NCBI GenBank assembly: GCA_050008435.1 | Contig: JBEKMQ010000002.1 | Location: forward strand, 175,929-239,928 | Length of the DNA: 64,000 nucleotides | DNA from: Candidatus Bathyarchaeia archaeon | GTDB lineage: Archaea > Thermoproteota > Bathyarchaeia > Bathyarchaeales > Bathycorpusculaceae | Direction of reading: 5' to 3' | Shown here: piece by piece, positions 28,327-47,482 of the stretch | Position numbering within the stretch: the stretch's first letter is position 1 | Layout: each line of letters starts with the position of its first letter | Position numbers and translations under genes: made by a program | Notes under the pieces: model-generated | Seen by the model: only the letters and a program-made list of their open reading frames with translations | The model's database searches: none | What the model was told of the DNA's origin: nothing

Positions 28327-28740
28327 CCAGGATCCTCTGTATGCTTTCGTAAACCATCAAAACTATAATGCCTAATGGATATCGTCCCTCTGAAGACCTA
28401 GTTCAGGAGGAATCTCCCACACCTTGGCTATTTGCACTATCGTTTCCAGTTGTATTCTTGTTCTACACTTTCGACATATTGCTTTTAAGCTAGTTTTGGC
28501 ATGGCGTTCTATTGGTATTGCTGAGAAATCACACTAACAATAGTGGAGTTCTCCCGTATTCCCGACTGACATAGATATCGCCACTTTCGGCAAGAATAGA
28601 CGGATTAGCCTGATCTAAAAGAATAGAAGGAAATGTCTTCTGGTTTTGTTCTCTACCAAAGATGAAAGAATCATTGGATTTAGTTGTCATTCAGAAAAGA
28701 CAAGAAAAGAAAGTGGCGGAATGATATGTTTTTGCTGTTC

Positions 28741-29073
28741 TTAACTCTTCTTTGGCTTTCTGAGCATCGAGCCTATGTAGAGTCCGATGAAACTTGCCAC
28801 CACCACAATGAAAACATTTAAGGCTATCGTGTCAGTCAGTGCATATTCCTCAACGCTCCACCATTGAGATGTCGTCAGCGTCTTTCCTGGGTTGGCGTTT
28901 TGGTAGGTTTCTTTAACTAATGGAGTCCAGTCCCCCTGTGCTGGAATTGCTGCTGCATAGAAAAGCATCAGTAGAGCGGCTCCCAAGACGACTATCTTGG
29001 CTATGGTTTTTATGCCAGCTTCTTCCCAGATTTTCCTGGAGAAGATTGCGCCGACGATCAATCCACTAAGCAA
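28741..29073 (-). CDS. small membrane protein, possibly 5-prime truncated
   Basis: TTG start. The hydrophobic reading frame stays open upstream to about 29200 without a start codon. Confidence 0.4.
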   Translation of the reverse strand: MLSGLIVGAIFSRKIWEEAGIKTIAKIVVLGAALLMLFYAAAIPAQGDWTPLVKETYQNANPGKTLTTSQWWSVEEYALTDTIALNVFIVVVASFIGLYIGSMLRKPKKS

Positions 29074-29204
29074 GAAGGAGATTATCCCGACAACCGTGGG
29101 TCCCCAATCCCTGTAAAGTTTTACCCCACGCGGGTGCGGTGGAACACCAATGCTAAATAGATTCTCTGGTTTACATAGAAAGAGTCTGGGGGCATGGGAG
29201 CACT

Positions 29205-30269
29205 ATGATACTGATCAAAGAGGCCATTGAGGACGATAATGATGCTCTTAATGAACTTCAGAAGAAATGTCCGATGGGCACCAGCATGGTTATTGGAATC
29301 GACAGCTCGCCCGACTATTTTGCTCGGTCTAGACCATTCAAAGAGTGGCAGGTTCTCGTGGCAGTTGAGAATAGTACAATAGTTGGTTCTGCCGCATACG
29401 CAATAATCGATACCTGCGTTAAAGGAAAGCATCTTAAAACTGCCTTTGAGTATGGTTTCATCGTTGACCCTCTTCACAGGCGAAAAGGAATTGGGGAAAA
29501 ACTTCAAAGGCACATCGAGCAGTTCGTGCTGGAGAAGGATGTCAAGCTAGTGCACCTAGACATAATCGAGGACAACTTACCTTCGATAGGCTTATTTTCC
29601 AAAATGGGATTCAAGAAAGTGAAAGACTGCACGATATTTTCCTTGTTGCCTTACAAGAAGCAGAGAACTACAGGAGAGGCAAACATAAGGAGTATGAACG
29701 AGACTGACGTTGATGATGTGACAAACCTGATTAACGAGATGTACCGTGACTACGATTTCTTCGCTCCTTTCCAACCTAAGGACTTCCTAGAGTATCTCAA
29801 GCGAATGCCATACTTCGAGTTTCACAATATCCTTGTTCTTGAAGACAATGGTGGCATTAAAGCCTGTCTGGGATACTGGGATCACAGCAAAGTCAGAAGA
29901 TACATTGTAGAGAAAATGAACCGGACATTGAGAATACAGACATACCTGATGAAGTTGATTGGCTTATTTGCCGAAATGCCTAGAATTCCCAAGCCTGGCG
30001 AACCACTGCTGAACTACAACTTGACCGCTATGGCTTGCAGGAACTCAGAAAGCATGACAGAATTGATAAAACATACAGTCAACATTGCTCTAGAGAATAA
30101 GGTCAACCAGATCATCGTAGCGGTAGACCCAAGGAACCCGATAGCTGCGAATCTCTCACAGTTCAGACATACTGAGATGAAACTGCATTTCTTCACCAAA
30201 TCGCTCAGACAGGAAAGATTACCGAACCTTGGAGAAAGGAAACTCTACATCGACGCAAATCAAATGTAA
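29205..30269 (+). CDS. GNAT family N-acetyltransferase with C-terminal extension
   Basis: VDPLHRRKGIGEKLQRHIE motif A. 354 aa. Confidence 0.7.
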   Translation: MILIKEAIEDDNDALNELQKKCPMGTSMVIGIDSSPDYFARSRPFKEWQVLVAVENSTIVGSAAYAIIDTCVKGKHLKTAFEYGFIVDPLHRRKGIGEKLQRHIEQFVLEKDVKLVHLDIIEDNLPSIGLFSKMGFKKVKDCTIFSLLPYKKQRTTGEANIRSMNETDVDDVTNLINEMYRDYDFFAPFQPKDFLEYLKRMPYFEFHNILVLEDNGGIKACLGYWDHSKVRRYIVEKMNRTLRIQTYLMKLIGLFAEMPRIPKPGEPLLNYNLTAMACRNSESMTELIKHTVNIALENKVNQIIVAVDPRNPIAANLSQFRHTEMKLHFFTKSLRQERLPNLGERKLYIDANQM

Positions 30270-30305
30270 CTATCGTTCACATTCACCCTGCAGCATACGG
30301 CGATT

Positions 30306-30350
30306 TTGGTTGGTTGGATAAAACTTTACCCCAAACCAAACCAACCAACA
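30306..30350 (+). repeat. palindromic element E1 (centre ATAAAACTTTACC)
   Basis: TTGGTTGGTTGG-ATAAAACTTTACC(30318-30330)-CCAAACCAAACCAACCAACA, 37 nt after the stop at 30269. Confidence 0.9.
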
Positions 30351-30589
30351 ACGACGGACTGGCTGAGCAGGGAAAACAGGCTTAGCAGGGTGTATACACG
30401 ATTCAGGCTATACAGTAGTCAGTATCAGTATAAGGTATACTATAGTCGAAATCGAGTATACGCCTCAGCAGGGCACGCGCGCGCAAATGTCGTCGTCGGC
30501 GGGTAAGGTTTTTTCAAACCAACTTTACAAAGGGGAAAAATTCTTATTTAATCAATCTAAGCTAATGGAAGTTAGGAAGCTAAAGACAG

Positions 30590-31063
30590 ATGAAAGCACT
30601 TGTTGCCTACTACTCTAGAACAGGAAACACAAGGAAAGTTGCTGAGAGAATCTCAGCACTTTTGGGATGTGACATTGAGGAGATCCGTGACGTTGTAAAT
30701 AGGTCAGGCATGATTGGCTGGCTTAAAGCAGGTAGAGATGTAGGTTCTAAAAGATTGACAACATTAGAAACGGTGAAGAACGACCCGGCTGGTTATGATA
30801 TCATCGTGATTGGCACGCCTATATGGCGTCACACGTTGTCAACGCCGATCAGAACTTACATCTCGCAATACCAGGAGAACTTCAAGAAGGTATCTTTCTT
30901 CTGTACTGGAAGAAGCACCGGAGATAGTCCATTCGATGAAATGGAGTCGCTTTGTGGAAAGAAGCCAATCGCTACACTTAGGCTGCAGATAAGACGGGGA
31001 GTTGATACCGCTCACGATCCTGAGAAGATTCAAGATTTCATTTCTAAAATAGAAGCAGAGTAG
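30590..31063 (+). CDS. flavodoxin-family protein
   Basis: [20 protein letters not shown]-terminus and VIGTPIW are typical of short flavodoxin-like proteins. Confidence 0.75.
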
Positions 31064-31097
31064 ACGCGCGCGCGAAATCAAACAGAAGGAAATCACC

Positions 31098-31107
31098 AGC
31101 GCGCGCT
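31098..31107. repeat. exact palindrome AGCGCGCGCT
   Basis: Immediately 5-prime of the first catalase-homologous codon. Confidence 0.95.
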
Positions 31108-31307
31108 ACTACACTCAGCTAGGAAAACTGTTCAGGTTAATGAACCATGGGCAGCAACAAGTCTTGTTCGAAAACACAGCACGTGCGATGGAAGACAGCC
31201 CAAAAGAAATCAAGATACGACACATCAGAAACTGTCTGAAGGCTGATCCCGCTTATGGCAAAGGAGTTGCAGACGCCCTACGAATATCCTTAGATGAAGC
31301 AACCTAG
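31107..31307 (+). pseudogene. C-terminal fragment of a heme catalase (catalase-related domain)
   Basis: The frame reads [28 protein letters not shown]...[22 protein letters not shown], which follows the catalase C-terminal pattern (Y.Q.G.LYRLM....Q.L.EN.A..M....I..R....F..ADP.YG..V...L). No catalase core lies upstream. An ATG at 31140 could still give a 55-aa peptide. Confidence 0.65.
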
Positions 31308-46611: not shown

Positions 46612-46661
46612 AGCAACACCAACTCCTGCAACCCTTCACTCAGAGCAATTCTTAACAACAC

Positions 46662-46678
46662 CCATATATAATTTTAGG
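46662..46678 (-). promoter_or_regulatory. putative BRE/TATA for eif5a
   Basis: The minus strand reads CCTAAAATTATATATGG, about 50 nt upstream of the start. Confidence 0.45.
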
Positions 46679-46701
46679 CACTAATTTTCGGCACCTTTAC
46701 G

Positions 46702-46769
46702 GGTCCTCTCGCGTTGAGAGACCGATCCGCGGGCGCTTCACTTCTTCGGCCAACGGCCTTGCTCGGATC
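46702..46769. other. GC-rich multi-stem intergenic segment (possible small structured RNA)
   Basis: GGTC(C)TCTC-GCGTT-GAGAGACC (46702-46723). GATCCG (46724-46729) pairs with CGGATC (46764-46769) and encloses GGCC-AAC-GGCC (46748-58). Strand and function are unknown. Confidence 0.25.
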
Positions 46770-46809
46770 GAAGGGAGTTTGACTGGAGCCAAACGTCTAG
46801 TTTTCCTCA

Positions 46810-46819
46810 AGCGCGCGCT
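46810..46819. repeat. exact palindrome AGCGCGCGCT
   Basis: Flanked to give AAGCGCGCGCTT. It lies between eif5a and the 46839 ORF. Confidence 0.95.
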
Positions 46820-46838
46820 TTTTGCTTCAAACAAAAGG

Positions 46839-47054
46839 ATGTTTTCAATGAGTAGGGGTTTCAGGGATTTGTTAGATGTTAGATGTAAAACGGAAAAGCA
46901 AGGTTACACCTTTAGAGGAACGGTTGAGGAGAGCGAGATCATAACATTCTGCGCTGAAGAGAATGTGGTTTATGATGATTTCGTCAGGGCTAAGATCACA
47001 AATGAGATTTTATATCTGTATCCTCAGCTCTTCGATGTCTTCGACATGGGATAG
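46839..47054 (+). CDS. hypothetical protein
   Basis: 71 aa from the ATG at 46839. The longer ORF from 46779 would read through the AGCGCGCGCT palindrome. Confidence 0.3.
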   Translation: MFSMSRGFRDLLDVRCKTEKQGYTFRGTVEESEIITFCAEENVVYDDFVRAKITNEILYLYPQLFDVFDMG

Positions 47055-47104
47055 CTTGTCAGCGCGCGTGCTCCGTATACAAAAGCATCAACGAATATCA
47101 CTAT

Positions 47105-47482
47105 TCAGCTTGGTTCCGAGCTCGTTATACTCATTTTTGTTGGGTCGGTGTGTGAACAGAATAGGAGGCTGTCTTGAGTCAGGTTTGTTCTCGTCGCCAG
47201 ATATTGCTTCAAATACTTGATTGACTCGGAGCCTAGGAAATTTTTGACTAGGCTAGCGATCCAAGATCTTATGTAATCCCCATGGACTCTTCCGAATATA
47301 TGCTCTTCAGAAGCTGCATAATCAGCTAGAATCTGTTCAGCATTTTTGCTGATGAATGAACTGAACTCTGACCAAACTCTTTTATATTGAACTTCTGTAG
47401 CCTTTGATTGGGAGTGCGAGATTGATACCGACGTTACCCAGTTTTCAACTGGATTATACTGTTTCAAGGAGATTGACCTCAT
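47105..47482 (-). CDS. hypothetical protein; weak resemblance to the N-terminal part of a tyrosine recombinase, possibly a truncated remnant
   Basis: WVTSVSISHSQSKATEVQYKRVWSEFSSFI resembles a SAM-like core-binding domain, and IKYLKQYLATR....DSLLF resembles an integrase segment. No catalytic R..HxxR..Y region follows. By-eye only. Confidence 0.3.
   Translation of the reverse strand: MRSISLKQYNPVENWVTSVSISHSQSKATEVQYKRVWSEFSSFISKNAEQILADYAASEEHIFGRVHGDYIRSWIASLVKNFLGSESIKYLKQYLATRTNLTQDSLLFCSHTDPTKMSITSSEPS

Follow-up and report, generated by a model that had tools for sequence, protein, structure and literature searches.

A hypervariable island of single-gene modules and short repeats beside the eIF5A gene of an uncultured sediment archaeon

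How did a long run of small, unrelated genes come to lie next to the conserved eIF5A and NAD kinase genes of an uncultured sediment archaeon (Candidatus Bathyarchaeia), and is it one foreign element or a patchwork? Five congeneric genomes are collinear over ~135 kb (-39 kb to +97 kb around the locus) with the window, i.e. the whole stretch of 64,000 nucleotides analysed here, apart from positions 18.5-46.2 kb. This segment of 27.7 kb is absent from four of the five, in which the flanking genes, encoding a 68-aa protein and eIF5A, are just 0.13-0.6 kb apart, and the fifth (G006) carries short, different content at the equivalent site, including a 69% homolog of the HAD gene of sub-island A. At 27.7 kb, the island thus exceeds the extent proposed in the earlier note: its left boundary had been set at 28.3 kb, whereas the variable segment begins at ~18.5 kb, and the 'accessory enzymes' to the left of 28.3 kb thus belong to the island. 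The same alignments to relatives bear out the description of the locus as hypervariable; the island is real, with event-level breakpoints that are blurred because the relatives are ~80% AAI apart. The hairpin-repeat pair at the left edge is the inverted partner of a pair at 8144-8365, and the hairpin repeat is missing from the empty site of L001. The block at 8.6-18.5 kb is inverted in G006. The island and its immediate flanks are laid out as follows.

18273..18479, + strand: conserved left flank gene, small membrane protein of 68 aa, ortholog 130-600 nt from eIF5A (G001/G004, G002/G008, G003, G005)
18501..18686, no strand: hairpin-repeat pair at the left edge of the island (inverted repeats I1-I3)
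18687..28326, no strand: sub-island A, larger accessory enzymes, zero repeat cores (Pfam, NCBIfam)
28327..46212, no strand: sub-island B, ~28 small single-gene modules, 10 repeat cores
46213..46611, - strand: conserved eIF5A (Pfam), 87-95% identity in congeners, dividing two variable sites
47578..48426, + strand: NAD kinase, conserved right flank (Pfam, synteny)

Sub-island A encodes NmrA-like, DUF5781, Pyr_redox_2 and MvaD-like decarboxylase proteins, two GNAT and two NUDIX proteins, a glyoxalase, a HAD protein and a TIGR04076 protein (Pfam, NCBIfam), and no syntenic ortholog of it was found in G002. Farther right, searches with Pfam and NCBIfam agreed with the gene content proposed before: GNAT, flavodoxin, serpin, radical-SAM-like, DUF1508/YegP, beta-CASP, SDR, PRC, HTH_45, CxxCxxCC/YkgJ, SnoaL, Hsp20, eIF5A and NAD kinase. 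The many small genes and the high intergenic fraction that had been remarked on at 28.3-47.5 kb were also found, with gene calls from a crude ORF caller: 26-29 genes per 19 kb vs a median of 19, a median gene length of 120 aa vs 229 aa for the genome, and a coding fraction of 66-70%, at the 2nd percentile of the genome (median 83%). Island genes are preceded by TATA boxes of their own, which are canonical and lie ~47 nt ahead of the start codon. No transposase domain was detected among the ~40 island ORFs scanned, and neither a tRNA nor an Rfam match was found within the window, in agreement with the claim that the locus has no tRNA att site, IS element or integron integrase. The composition proved to be indistinguishable from that of the remaining genome (island windows lie at the 19th-84th percentile for tetranucleotide distance and at the 10th-47th percentile for GC), so that the cargo is drawn from the lineage's own flexible pool.

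Two repeat families accompany these genes. The first is an element of ~40 nt whose centre is conserved and whose arms are variable: a core, the 15-bp quasi-palindrome GGATAAAACTTTACC, stands between a GT-rich left arm and a CA-rich right arm, both microsatellite-like and without covariation, and half of the copies in the window do not fold. The second family consists of (GC)n palindromes, e.g. AGCGCGCGCT. Both had been reported to be concentrated here, which the counts support, since 10 of the 65 cores of the genome fall within 16.6 kb and 12 of 329 occurrences of GCGCGCGC within 19 kb (~2.6 expected). Both types nevertheless belong to the flexible genome as a whole and are not peculiar to this locus; they are nearly confined to the half of the genome that is non-syntenic. 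Segments without synteny to G002 contain 63 of the 65 cores, and of 57 intergenic cores a single one lies in a core-genome spacer, as do 18 of 276 GCGCGCGC, where 25% would be expected in each case (p=2e-6 and p=6e-16, respectively). At the ends of alignments between G000 and G002, GCGCGCGC is enriched 2-fold; the genome-wide test for alignment ends within 25 nt of cores gave a weak effect (9 observed vs 5.1 expected). Half-elements are frequent, and in the arm-type table one recognised arm was present in 59 copies, both in 21 and none in 40. The 15-mer core is exactly conserved between genera, and sediment metagenomes contain it in local clusters, on at least 118 contigs. The cores in the island are the following.

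29112..29126, - strand: core with 2 mismatches, left border of the GNAT module and truncation edge of 28741-29073
30316..30330, + strand: exact core with both arms, hairpin possible
33463..33477, + strand: exact core
37298..37312, + strand: exact core, strongest hairpin of all copies here (z -4.9), following a G/T-only tract of ~140 nt
39793..39807, - strand: core with 1 mismatch
40749..40763, + strand: core with 2 mismatches, half-element with right arm only
42180..42194, + strand: exact core
44823..44837, + strand: core with 1 mismatch, half-element with right arm only
45193..45207, + strand: core with 1 mismatch, half-element with left arm only, AGCGCGCGCT 13 nt upstream
45652..45666, + strand: degenerate core with 3 mismatches, left arm only

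For 130 pairs of adjacent cores, the spacing has a median of 0.7-1.0 kb, and a single ORF occupies ~65% of the core-to-core interval. No polarity of cores and ORFs was seen across adjacent core pairs, which is unlike known cassette systems and counts against reading the repeats as joining sites. The arms are fast-evolving simple repeats at which homology may stop trivially, and this also counts against that reading.

The locus does prove to be a mosaic: its single-gene modules move independently of one another, as the comparison with relatives shows. At least 15 island genes have homologs at many other loci of relatives; matches are scattered over at least eight separate loci in G002 and over different contigs in G003-G006, with DNA identities of 68-92% and with changed neighbours and orientations, and paralogous modules recur in further islands of the same genome. 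For example, the GNAT module has a copy on G005:C14 with degenerate cores at both ends and different neighbours:

29135..30340, + strand: GNAT module, core to core, 80% DNA identity to G005:C14

Furthermore, a 172-aa module (C1:487760-488336) is ~92% DNA-identical core-to-core with G025, which belongs to another genus, and its flanks there are unrelated; syntenic orthologs of the two genomes have 50-88% amino acid identity.

Damaged genes are also present in the island.

31098..31307, + strand: catalase C-terminal fragment, starting at the palindrome AGCGCGCGCT (Pfam Catalase-rel, translation)
32839..33468, + strand: radical-SAM-like gene, 3' part lost at a core, alignment to residues 6-210 of P0067 (292 aa)
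45790..46130, + strand: frameshifted Hsp20 pseudogene, last module ahead of eIF5A (Pfam HSP20 N-terminal part; C-terminal part in a different frame)

The catalase fragment and the Hsp20 frameshift, both noticed previously, were confirmed, the former by a match of 31140-31307 to positions 18-65 of 65 of Catalase-rel; a full catalase is encoded elsewhere in the genome (C1:1081311). The suspected 5' truncation of 28741-29073 is also genuine, as its G002 ortholog and four paralogs are longer by ~45 N-terminal residues and homology ends at the edge of the core 29112..29126. A split ORF at 44463-44800, by contrast, is not supported, its G002 ortholog being an equally short 64-aa ORF. For the radical-SAM-like gene, the final codons and the stop fall inside the repeat element, in its arm and core, and the missing C-terminal part was not found anywhere in the genome. 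Two island genes, this one and 28741-29073, are thus cut exactly at core edges.

Beyond eIF5A lies a second variable site, the divergent eIF5A/NADK promoter spacer.

46670..47549, no strand: 880-nt insert in the spacer, remnant of an integrated element (spacer 85-87 nt in L001, G003 and G005)
47105..47482, - strand: tyrosine integrase pseudogene, internally deleted (phmmer, alignment A1)

The 125-aa ORF, previously suspected to be a recombinase remnant, is indeed an integrase remnant: it matches the N-termini of 370-470-aa proteins that bear PF00589 (phmmer, E 6e-27), and it has kept an N-terminal SAM-like domain and ~35 further residues, the catalytic residues being absent. It is not the recombinase of the island: the insert that holds it, 0.88 kb long, is separate and is located beyond the conserved eIF5A gene. 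The insertion point, CCCATATAT^AGATTAA, is identical to that of an intact 8.8-kb integrated element in G002, and the insert is common in part to G006. Independently of the island, the spacer serves as an attachment site for tyrosine-integrase elements. For this insert, a comparison can be made with archaeal cryptic elements with pNOB8-/SSV-type tyrosine integrases, which it resembles in having the integrase gene at one end, adjoining the attachment point, in being missing in relatives, and in that the intact element of the congener has terminal direct repeats at the identical nucleotide position. In contrast to those elements, attachment is here at an intergenic promoter spacer and not at a tRNA gene, and the window copy has shrunk to 880 nt, its integrase being internally deleted.

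We consider it fairly probable that the flexible genomic island at 18.5-46.2 kb is a patchwork assembled via repeat-associated joining. It occupies a hotspot of long standing, bordered by a small conserved gene on one side and by the 3' end of eIF5A on the other, and is not a single foreign element: its ~40 genes are mostly autonomous one-gene modules with canonical promoters, drawn from an accessory pool of the lineage whose genes stand singly, elsewhere and in other combinations in related genomes. Module junctions bear GGATAAAACTTTACC cores with arms and (GC)n palindromes like AGCGCGCGCT, and these repeats may be points of DNA breakage and rejoining, brought about either by a putative site-directed enzyme or by palindrome-stimulated illegitimate recombination; under either agent, modules would be inserted, swapped, inverted or lost, and a gene would occasionally be cut at a repeat edge. 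That the repeats are the joining sites of modules is, we infer, most likely, and they look like an undescribed, non-integron route to accessory-gene assembly in archaea. It speaks against this reading that neither an IntI nor a Y1 transposase was found and that integrase counts did not track core counts. Part of the content (HAD, GNAT) probably stood at the site in an ancestor and has decayed in relatives, so that the locus is not purely 'accumulating'.

A less probable but possible explanation is that the core is regulatory DNA travelling with the modules, such as a bidirectional promoter or TBP/TFB site, a terminator, an insulator or an operator of an accessory/stress regulon, and that recombination is ordinary and untargeted. 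In G000 as well as in G002, a core-like 15-mer ends ~24 nt ahead of the 5' end of the SRP RNA, exactly where the BRE/TATA of this gene is expected, and the core could thus be mainly a TBP/TFB-binding or regulatory sequence. Likewise, the core of the C1:487760 module stands 23 nt ahead of the ATG, which is leaderless-promoter geometry, the downstream neighbour of the core in one orientation is a gene start in 37 cases and a gene end in 20, the 15-mer is exact across genera as for a protein-binding site, and stress-type cargo (Hsp20, catalase, flavodoxin, LEA-like, DUF1508) is abundant. However, ORFs are randomly oriented relative to the core (33 co-oriented, 42 anti-oriented) and start codons lie from 14 to >800 nt away; island genes have their own TATA boxes, tRNA promoters are unlike the core, and the exact core-edge truncation of two genes, the frequency of half-elements and the near absence of the core from core-genome spacers also argue against a regulatory role. 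Differential deletion, in which the island is mainly ancestral DNA lost by the sampled relatives without continuing acquisition, seems unlikely. Simple loss does not explain why at least 15 island genes occur elsewhere in relatives with other neighbours, and paralogous modules in other islands of the genome, pseudogenes cut at repeats and cross-genus modules more identical than the core genome also speak against it; in its favour are a GNAT remnant at the island site in G002 (homologous to 26839-27384), a shorter one in G005 (by eye), the HAD homolog in G006, the native composition, and the fact that relocated genes (68-92% DNA identity) are about as similar as core orthologs are.

A single large decayed mobile element (provirus, ICE or plasmid) with ORF 47105-47482 as its integrase is very improbable: the right-edge remnant, the numerous small ORFans and pseudogenes and the intact element adjoining NADK in a relative fit such an origin, but the remnant has its own insert and a distinct att point beyond eIF5A, viral or plasmid hallmark genes were not found in the island, the composition is native, and each gene has scattered homologs. 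Integrons and CALINs occur in Archaea, Thermoproteota included (Ghaly et al. 2022, PMC9668308), and like their arrays the island has single-ORF modules between repeated imperfect palindromes and units common to genomes and genera in different contexts. That the cores are unusual attC sites, served in trans by an integron-type integrase, is nonetheless exceedingly improbable. No IntI was found (top TIGR02249 score 44 bits vs the cut-off of 265), the ~40-nt element is conserved at its centre and not in its stem, whereas attC sites are 55-141 nt with R boxes conserved in the stem, the arm polarity is GGTT...AACC instead of RYYYAAC...GTTRRRY, covariation between the arms is lacking, half of the copies in the window are unfolded, sites and ORFs are not co-oriented, and the modules bear their own promoters. 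An assembly or binning artefact, in which foreign contig pieces were fused at short repeats, might be suspected from the MAG-like assembly (estimated contamination 4%) and from junctions that coincide with repeats; it is scarcely credible for an island of native composition within a 304-kb contig with both flanks syntenic, whose repeats are merely 15-40 nt long and whose architecture recurs in independent assemblies (the complete chromosome of G002, G025 and many metagenome contigs).

Other known systems share some of these features. Bacterial REP/BIME sequences with RAYT transposases are likewise short extragenic palindromes, often directly past stop codons, that are clustered and able to promote rearrangements. 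In contrast, the three core-rich genomes have no Y1 (HUH-type) transposase, the core arms resemble microsatellites and lack covariation, half-elements make up many of the copies, and core copies are nearly restricted to the accessory genome. Additive flexible genomic islands (fGIs) are part of prokaryotic pangenomes, as in Alteromonas, Pseudoalteromonas and Nitrosopumilus-type genomes. The present island is like them in being a fixed chromosomal hotspot flanked by conserved genes, in its native-like composition, and in that close relatives differ in content, with small accessory genes and pseudogenes as cargo. It is unlike them in that the main island has no tRNA or integrase anchor, that the modules are single genes between lineage-specific short repeats, and that about half of the genome behaves in this way relative to a congener.

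Bathyarchaeia rank among the most abundant archaea of sediments, and the route by which their large accessory genomes are assembled is, to our knowledge, essentially unknown. The host genome of the window (G000; 2.39 Mb in 7 contigs, archaeal, 47% GC; window at C2:175929-239928 of its contig 2) has Bathyarchaeia MAGs as its nearest public relatives, with NAD kinase identities of 89% to JBGPBS010000004.1 (L001, the locus of the congeners G001 and G004) and 85% to OY970072.1, a 2.17-Mb chromosome (L002, that of G002 and G008). The comparison covered the G002 chromosome (2.14 Mb of it) together with parts of four further congeners. 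Collinearity of the genes extends from 39 kb to the left of the window as far as 33 kb on its right, and is interrupted at window 18.5-46.2 kb, which is flanked by the following genes:

18273-18479, left flank gene of the variable segment (68 aa)
46213-46611, right flank gene of the variable segment, eIF5A

The distance between these genes is 390 nt in L001, ~600 nt in G002, 127 nt in G003 and 170 nt in G005. In G006, ~3 kb precede eIF5A, including a HAD homolog 69% identical to 25967-26698, and within the 600 nt of G002 a GNAT homologous to 26839-27384 is preserved as its C-terminal half. These distances and contents therefore define a variable segment of 27.7 kb, whose left edge is the hairpin-repeat pair at 18501-18686, and the site is a hotspot of long standing that has seen gains as well as erosion. 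The alignment to the congeners G001-G006 thus bore out the earlier note in that conserved flanks enclose content that varies among close relatives, as is characteristic of a flexible genomic island. The start of the variable stretch, however, is at ~18.5 kb and not at ~28.3 kb as the note had it, and the accessory enzymes at 18.7-28.3 kb lie within the island; by Pfam and NCBIfam they include NmrA-like, DUF5781, thioredoxin-reductase-like and MvaD-like decarboxylase genes, GNATs, NUDIX proteins, a glyoxalase, a HAD and TIGR04076. In G006, the block at 8.6-18.5 kb is inverted relative to G000, with two hairpin-repeat pairs as its breakpoints (window 8144-18686).

This 27.7-kb flexible island at a conserved hotspot is real, and its composition is native. 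The tetranucleotide distances of 5-kb island windows lie at the 19th-84th percentile of the genome and their GC at the 10th-47th, and the cargo is therefore compositionally not foreign. Every such window is inside the genome's 95% range, and the deviant GC or oligonucleotide composition of a horizontally acquired foreign island, for which the earlier description left room, was not found. A classical tRNA-anchored genomic island was rejected, since the 64-kb window contains no tRNA gene, no integrase was found between 18.5 and 46.2 kb, and no att-like duplication is visible at the island borders, in agreement with the initial impression that no tRNA att site is in view. No Rfam family exceeds the gathering threshold in the window. 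The unusually high intergenic fraction was confirmed for 28327-47482, where the coding fraction of 66-70% is at the 2nd percentile of 19-kb windows (genome median 83%); with the crude ORF-based caller used for density and synteny counts, this stretch has 26-29 genes versus a median of 19, with a median gene length of 120 aa versus 229. The first list of its genes was upheld by Pfam and NCBIfam, and for the island ORFs of unassigned function PHROGs, PADLOC and NCBIfam returned nothing informative and no defence system. The stand-alone beta-CASP/MBL RNase at window 34830-36227 is an accessory paralog in the island, with two more beta-CASP genes elsewhere in the genome, and is below both NCBIfam cut-offs (type VII CRISPR Cas14, 395 bits with a cut-off of 800; aCPSF1, 306 with 580). 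A 362-aa protein at window 38650-39738 begins with a weak integrase SAM-like (core-binding) domain and carries a Cys-rich DUF6144 at its C-terminus, without a recombinase catalytic domain.

Two short repeat families, a 15-bp quasi-palindromic core (GGATAAAACTTTACC) and (GC)n palindromes, are both hallmarks of the flexible genome. The arms of the core are simple repeats (GGTT, GGGTTT, GT and their complements), GT-rich on the left and CA-rich on the right, and half-elements with a single arm are frequent. G000 has 28 exact copies of the core and 65 at <=2 mismatches, with ~4-6 expected by chance, nearly all of them intergenic and clustered in few islands. Clusters of 9-10 copies each are found at C1:485-493 kb, at C6:2-24 kb and in the present island, so the concentration of core repeats here, already seen from the sequence alone, amounts to 9-10 of the genome's 65. 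At <=1 mismatch, there are 51 copies in G000, 21 in G008 and 29 in G025, a genome of another genus of the family, with 0-2 for reversed controls. The 15-mer is exactly conserved across genera of the family, and an 18-mer (core plus flanks) is present in no fewer than 118 metagenome contigs from sediments, typically with several cores at spacings of 0.3-1.5 kb. The (GC)n palindromes are over-represented in G000, with 329 GCGCGCGC and 104 AGCGCGCGCT sites. Syntenic orthologs in the same-genus chromosome G002 were found for 1095 of 2357 crude ORF calls, and ~55% of G000 lies in segments non-syntenic with G002, 62 of which are >=5 kb; 63 of the 65 cores fall in such segments. When intergenic base pairs were taken as the baseline, core-genome spacers held 1 of 57 cores (p=2e-6) and 18 of 276 GCGCGCGC sites (p=6e-16), versus 25% expected in each case. 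Core matches in viral contigs are at about the chance number, although 2 of the 3 have armed elements. Two IMG/VR contigs labelled viral (L193 and L195) carry two armed cores each and may derive from these archaea, as host fragments or as proviruses.

The island is built from independently shuffled one-gene modules. Homologs of the NmrA-like gene, gene 28741, the serpin, DUF1508, gene 43057, YkgJ, gene 44564 and gene 44909 are held by eight different G002 loci, and the remaining island genes have no homologs in G002. A DNA search of the genus found island pieces on separate contigs of G003-G006, at 68-92% identity and with changed neighbours and orientations. For instance, the GNAT module (29135-30340) is common to G000 and G005 from core to core, and window 43519-43696 adjoins it in G005 and is 13 kb from it in G000. 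Paralogous modules are present in other islands of G000. Furthermore, a 562-nt module at C1:487760-488336 has ~92% DNA identity, core to core, with one in another genus, the sequence on either side being unrelated; syntenic orthologs of the two genomes have 50-88% amino acid identity. Single-ORF units are thus found in differing contexts in different genomes, as in integron and CALIN arrays. The locus thereby offers a nucleotide-resolution hotspot of single-gene shuffling within and between genera, with the two short repeat families as its likely joints.

Both repeat families are found at module borders, specific to the flexible genome, and genes are cut there. Three cut genes in the island end in this way, two at core edges and one at AGCGCGCGCT. 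The membrane gene at 28741-29073 is 5'-truncated, as had been suspected, because its G002 ortholog and four G000 paralogs are ~45 residues longer N-terminally, and its homology to these relatives ends at the very edge of a core. The radical-SAM-like ORF 32839-33468, a broken gene missed at first reading, matches residues 6-210 of a homolog of 292 aa and terminates in '...AGLG*', with its final codons and stop inside the arm and core of a repeat; the part that it lacks does not occur elsewhere in the genome. The catalase C-terminal fragment is genuine (Catalase-rel positions 18-65 of 65), and so is the Hsp20 frameshift, but a split ORF at 44463-44800 is not supported, the G002 ortholog being the same 64-aa ORF. 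In 4 of 7 comparisons of G000 with G002, homology stops at the edge of a core, and GCGCGCGC is 2-fold enriched at G000/G002 alignment ends. Against a role as junctions, cores are in no more than weak excess at alignment ends (9 vs 5.1 expected), the arms are fast-evolving simple sequence, and the relatives are too distant for individual events to show. From these observations we infer that the repeats are sites of breakage and joining. Reciprocal exchange was not seen, in that the missing halves of the two core-truncated genes are not beside other cores elsewhere in the genome, and integrase number had no link with core number among 41 genomes.

Several known systems were considered for the core. 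Integron attC sites are 55-141 nt long, with R''-L''/L'-R' boxes (RYYYAAC...GTTRRRY) and a conserved folded hairpin. In contrast, the core element is ~40 nt, with GGTT...AACC polarity, a conserved centre and arms that do not covary, and its folding was no better than that of shuffles in 5 of 10 window cores; a hairpin or covarying-arm model was rejected. Integron cassettes have co-oriented sites and mostly co-oriented promoterless ORFs, whereas island genes have their own TATA boxes, orientation is shared in 75 of 130 adjacent core pairs (p=0.095), and 33 ORFs are co-oriented and 42 anti-oriented relative to cores, without polarity. The best whole-genome match to IntI (TIGR02249) scores 44 bits versus a cut-off of 265, all matches being generic tyrosine recombinases, which upholds the earlier statement that no integron integrase is in view. 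An attC or integron-CALIN identity was therefore rejected. Archaeal integrons so far described have canonical attC and IntI (PMC9668308). As regards REP/BIME elements with RAYT, which are short extragenic imperfect palindromes in many copies, the 65 copies of the core are nearly all intergenic, but only about half have two arms, and the arms do not covary; this identity was rejected because the Y1 (HUH) transposase PF01797 is absent from the three core-rich genomes G000, G008 and G025. Textbook machines excluded at the locus are the integron, the tRNA-att island, the IS element and RAYT.

A general strong promoter was rejected too, since the boxes of core genes, ~47 nt before the start codon, and those of tRNAs, ~30-45 nt before the tRNA, are of the CTTAAATA type, and island genes carry such boxes besides the core. 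A more specific role of the core, as a TBP/TFB-binding or other regulatory site, is a serious rival, because one module has a core 23 nt before its ATG and, in both G000 and G002, a core-like 15-mer, GGTAAAGTTTTATAG (RNA strand), ends ~24 nt upstream of the 5' end of the SRP RNA:

G000 C3:12344-12658 (L187:544-858), minus strand, SRP RNA gene (Rfam RF01857, 165.9 bits)

At this locus, G000/G002 homology breaks exactly at the outer edge of the core-like 15-mer. If the repeats are regulatory, they would mark a lineage-wide regulon or an insulator of accessory genes. If they are true recombination sites, they would represent a new archaeal route of gene capture, with a 15-bp probe for testing it. 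The fullest form of the recombination reading, which we regard as possible but rather doubtful, is that this Bathyarchaeia family, abundant in freshwater and peat sediments, has a new non-integron gene-module system, in which the recombination site would be GGATAAAACTTTACC and its GT/CA microsatellite arms, perhaps jointly with (GC)n palindromes, one-gene modules would be captured, exchanged (even across genera), inverted and deleted there by an enzyme other than IntI or a Y1 transposase, and about half of the genome's accessory content would be so built. Whether regulatory or recombinational, the core motif is of practical use for marking the flexible genome of such MAGs.

A decayed integrase element occupies an att site neighbouring the island. 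The 125-aa ORF 47105-47482 has no Pfam or PHROG match, and BLASTP against the G002 integrase was not significant. By exhaustive phmmer, its residues 7-90 match the N-terminal ends of proteins of 370-470 aa (best match at 56% identity, E 6e-27) that carry Phage_integrase PF00589 and SAM-like domains, and a second stretch matches an internal segment of these proteins. The alignment shows that the catalytic half (R..HxxR..Y region) is deleted, leaving the N-terminal SAM-like domain and ~35 residues; the ORF is therefore a remnant and not a functional member of a tyrosine-integrase element. It is part of an insert of 880 nt (46670-47549) that interrupts the divergent eIF5A/NADK (NAD kinase) spacer, which is 85-87 nt long in three congeners, and the insertion point, CCCATATAT^AGATTAA, also holds a related element in G002:

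L002:1230-9990 (G002 chromosome ~2068175-2076935), 8.8-kb cryptic integrated element between eIF5A and NADK

This element encodes an intact 404-aa tyrosine integrase in the position and orientation of ORF 47105-47482, an HNH-like Zn-finger ORF and mostly ORFan genes, and has the terminal direct repeats CCGTTGAATCTCT..GTAGATT and GTTATCTAT. The insert thus marks a defined att point, unoccupied in relatives and shared with a related element. G006 has a 1.43-kb insert in the same spacer, the first ~200 nt of which are common with the window insert. The eIF5A/NADK insert represents an att-type site of its own and does not drive the main island; of the earlier proposal of a recombinase remnant at the island's right edge, the remnant stands and its assignment to the island does not.

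Further features were observed in or near core-rich regions. A family of ~180-aa proteins has at least 14 G000 paralogs within or beside core-rich arrays (C1:352203-356836, C5:109760-118342, C6:7652-11682 and others), and on C6 a common promoter/leader of ~35-60 nt is repeated ahead of several adjacent genes. A nearly C-free tract of ~160 nt ending in a core (window 37155-37314) recurs at C1:70147-70297 (85%), C1:253369, C1:1094556 and C4:62407. In addition, a conserved ~150-nt unit lies 3' of three cores, at C2:174282-174421 (~1.6 kb left of the window), C4:76321-77636 and C1:1173733-1173841; it contains a perfect hairpin (CCCCATATACTAT..ATAGGGG) and a T-run and may be an sRNA, a 5'UTR or an att-like site. 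The C4 copy has a 1.15-kb one-gene insert between a ~45-nt duplication of the unit, and whole or split tyrosine integrases are located <=1-2 kb from the C2 and C4 copies. The islet at C2:172134-175900 (-3.8 to 0 kb of the window), absent from G002, contains a 627-aa ORF, one core and a split tyrosine integrase (C2:175076-175806).
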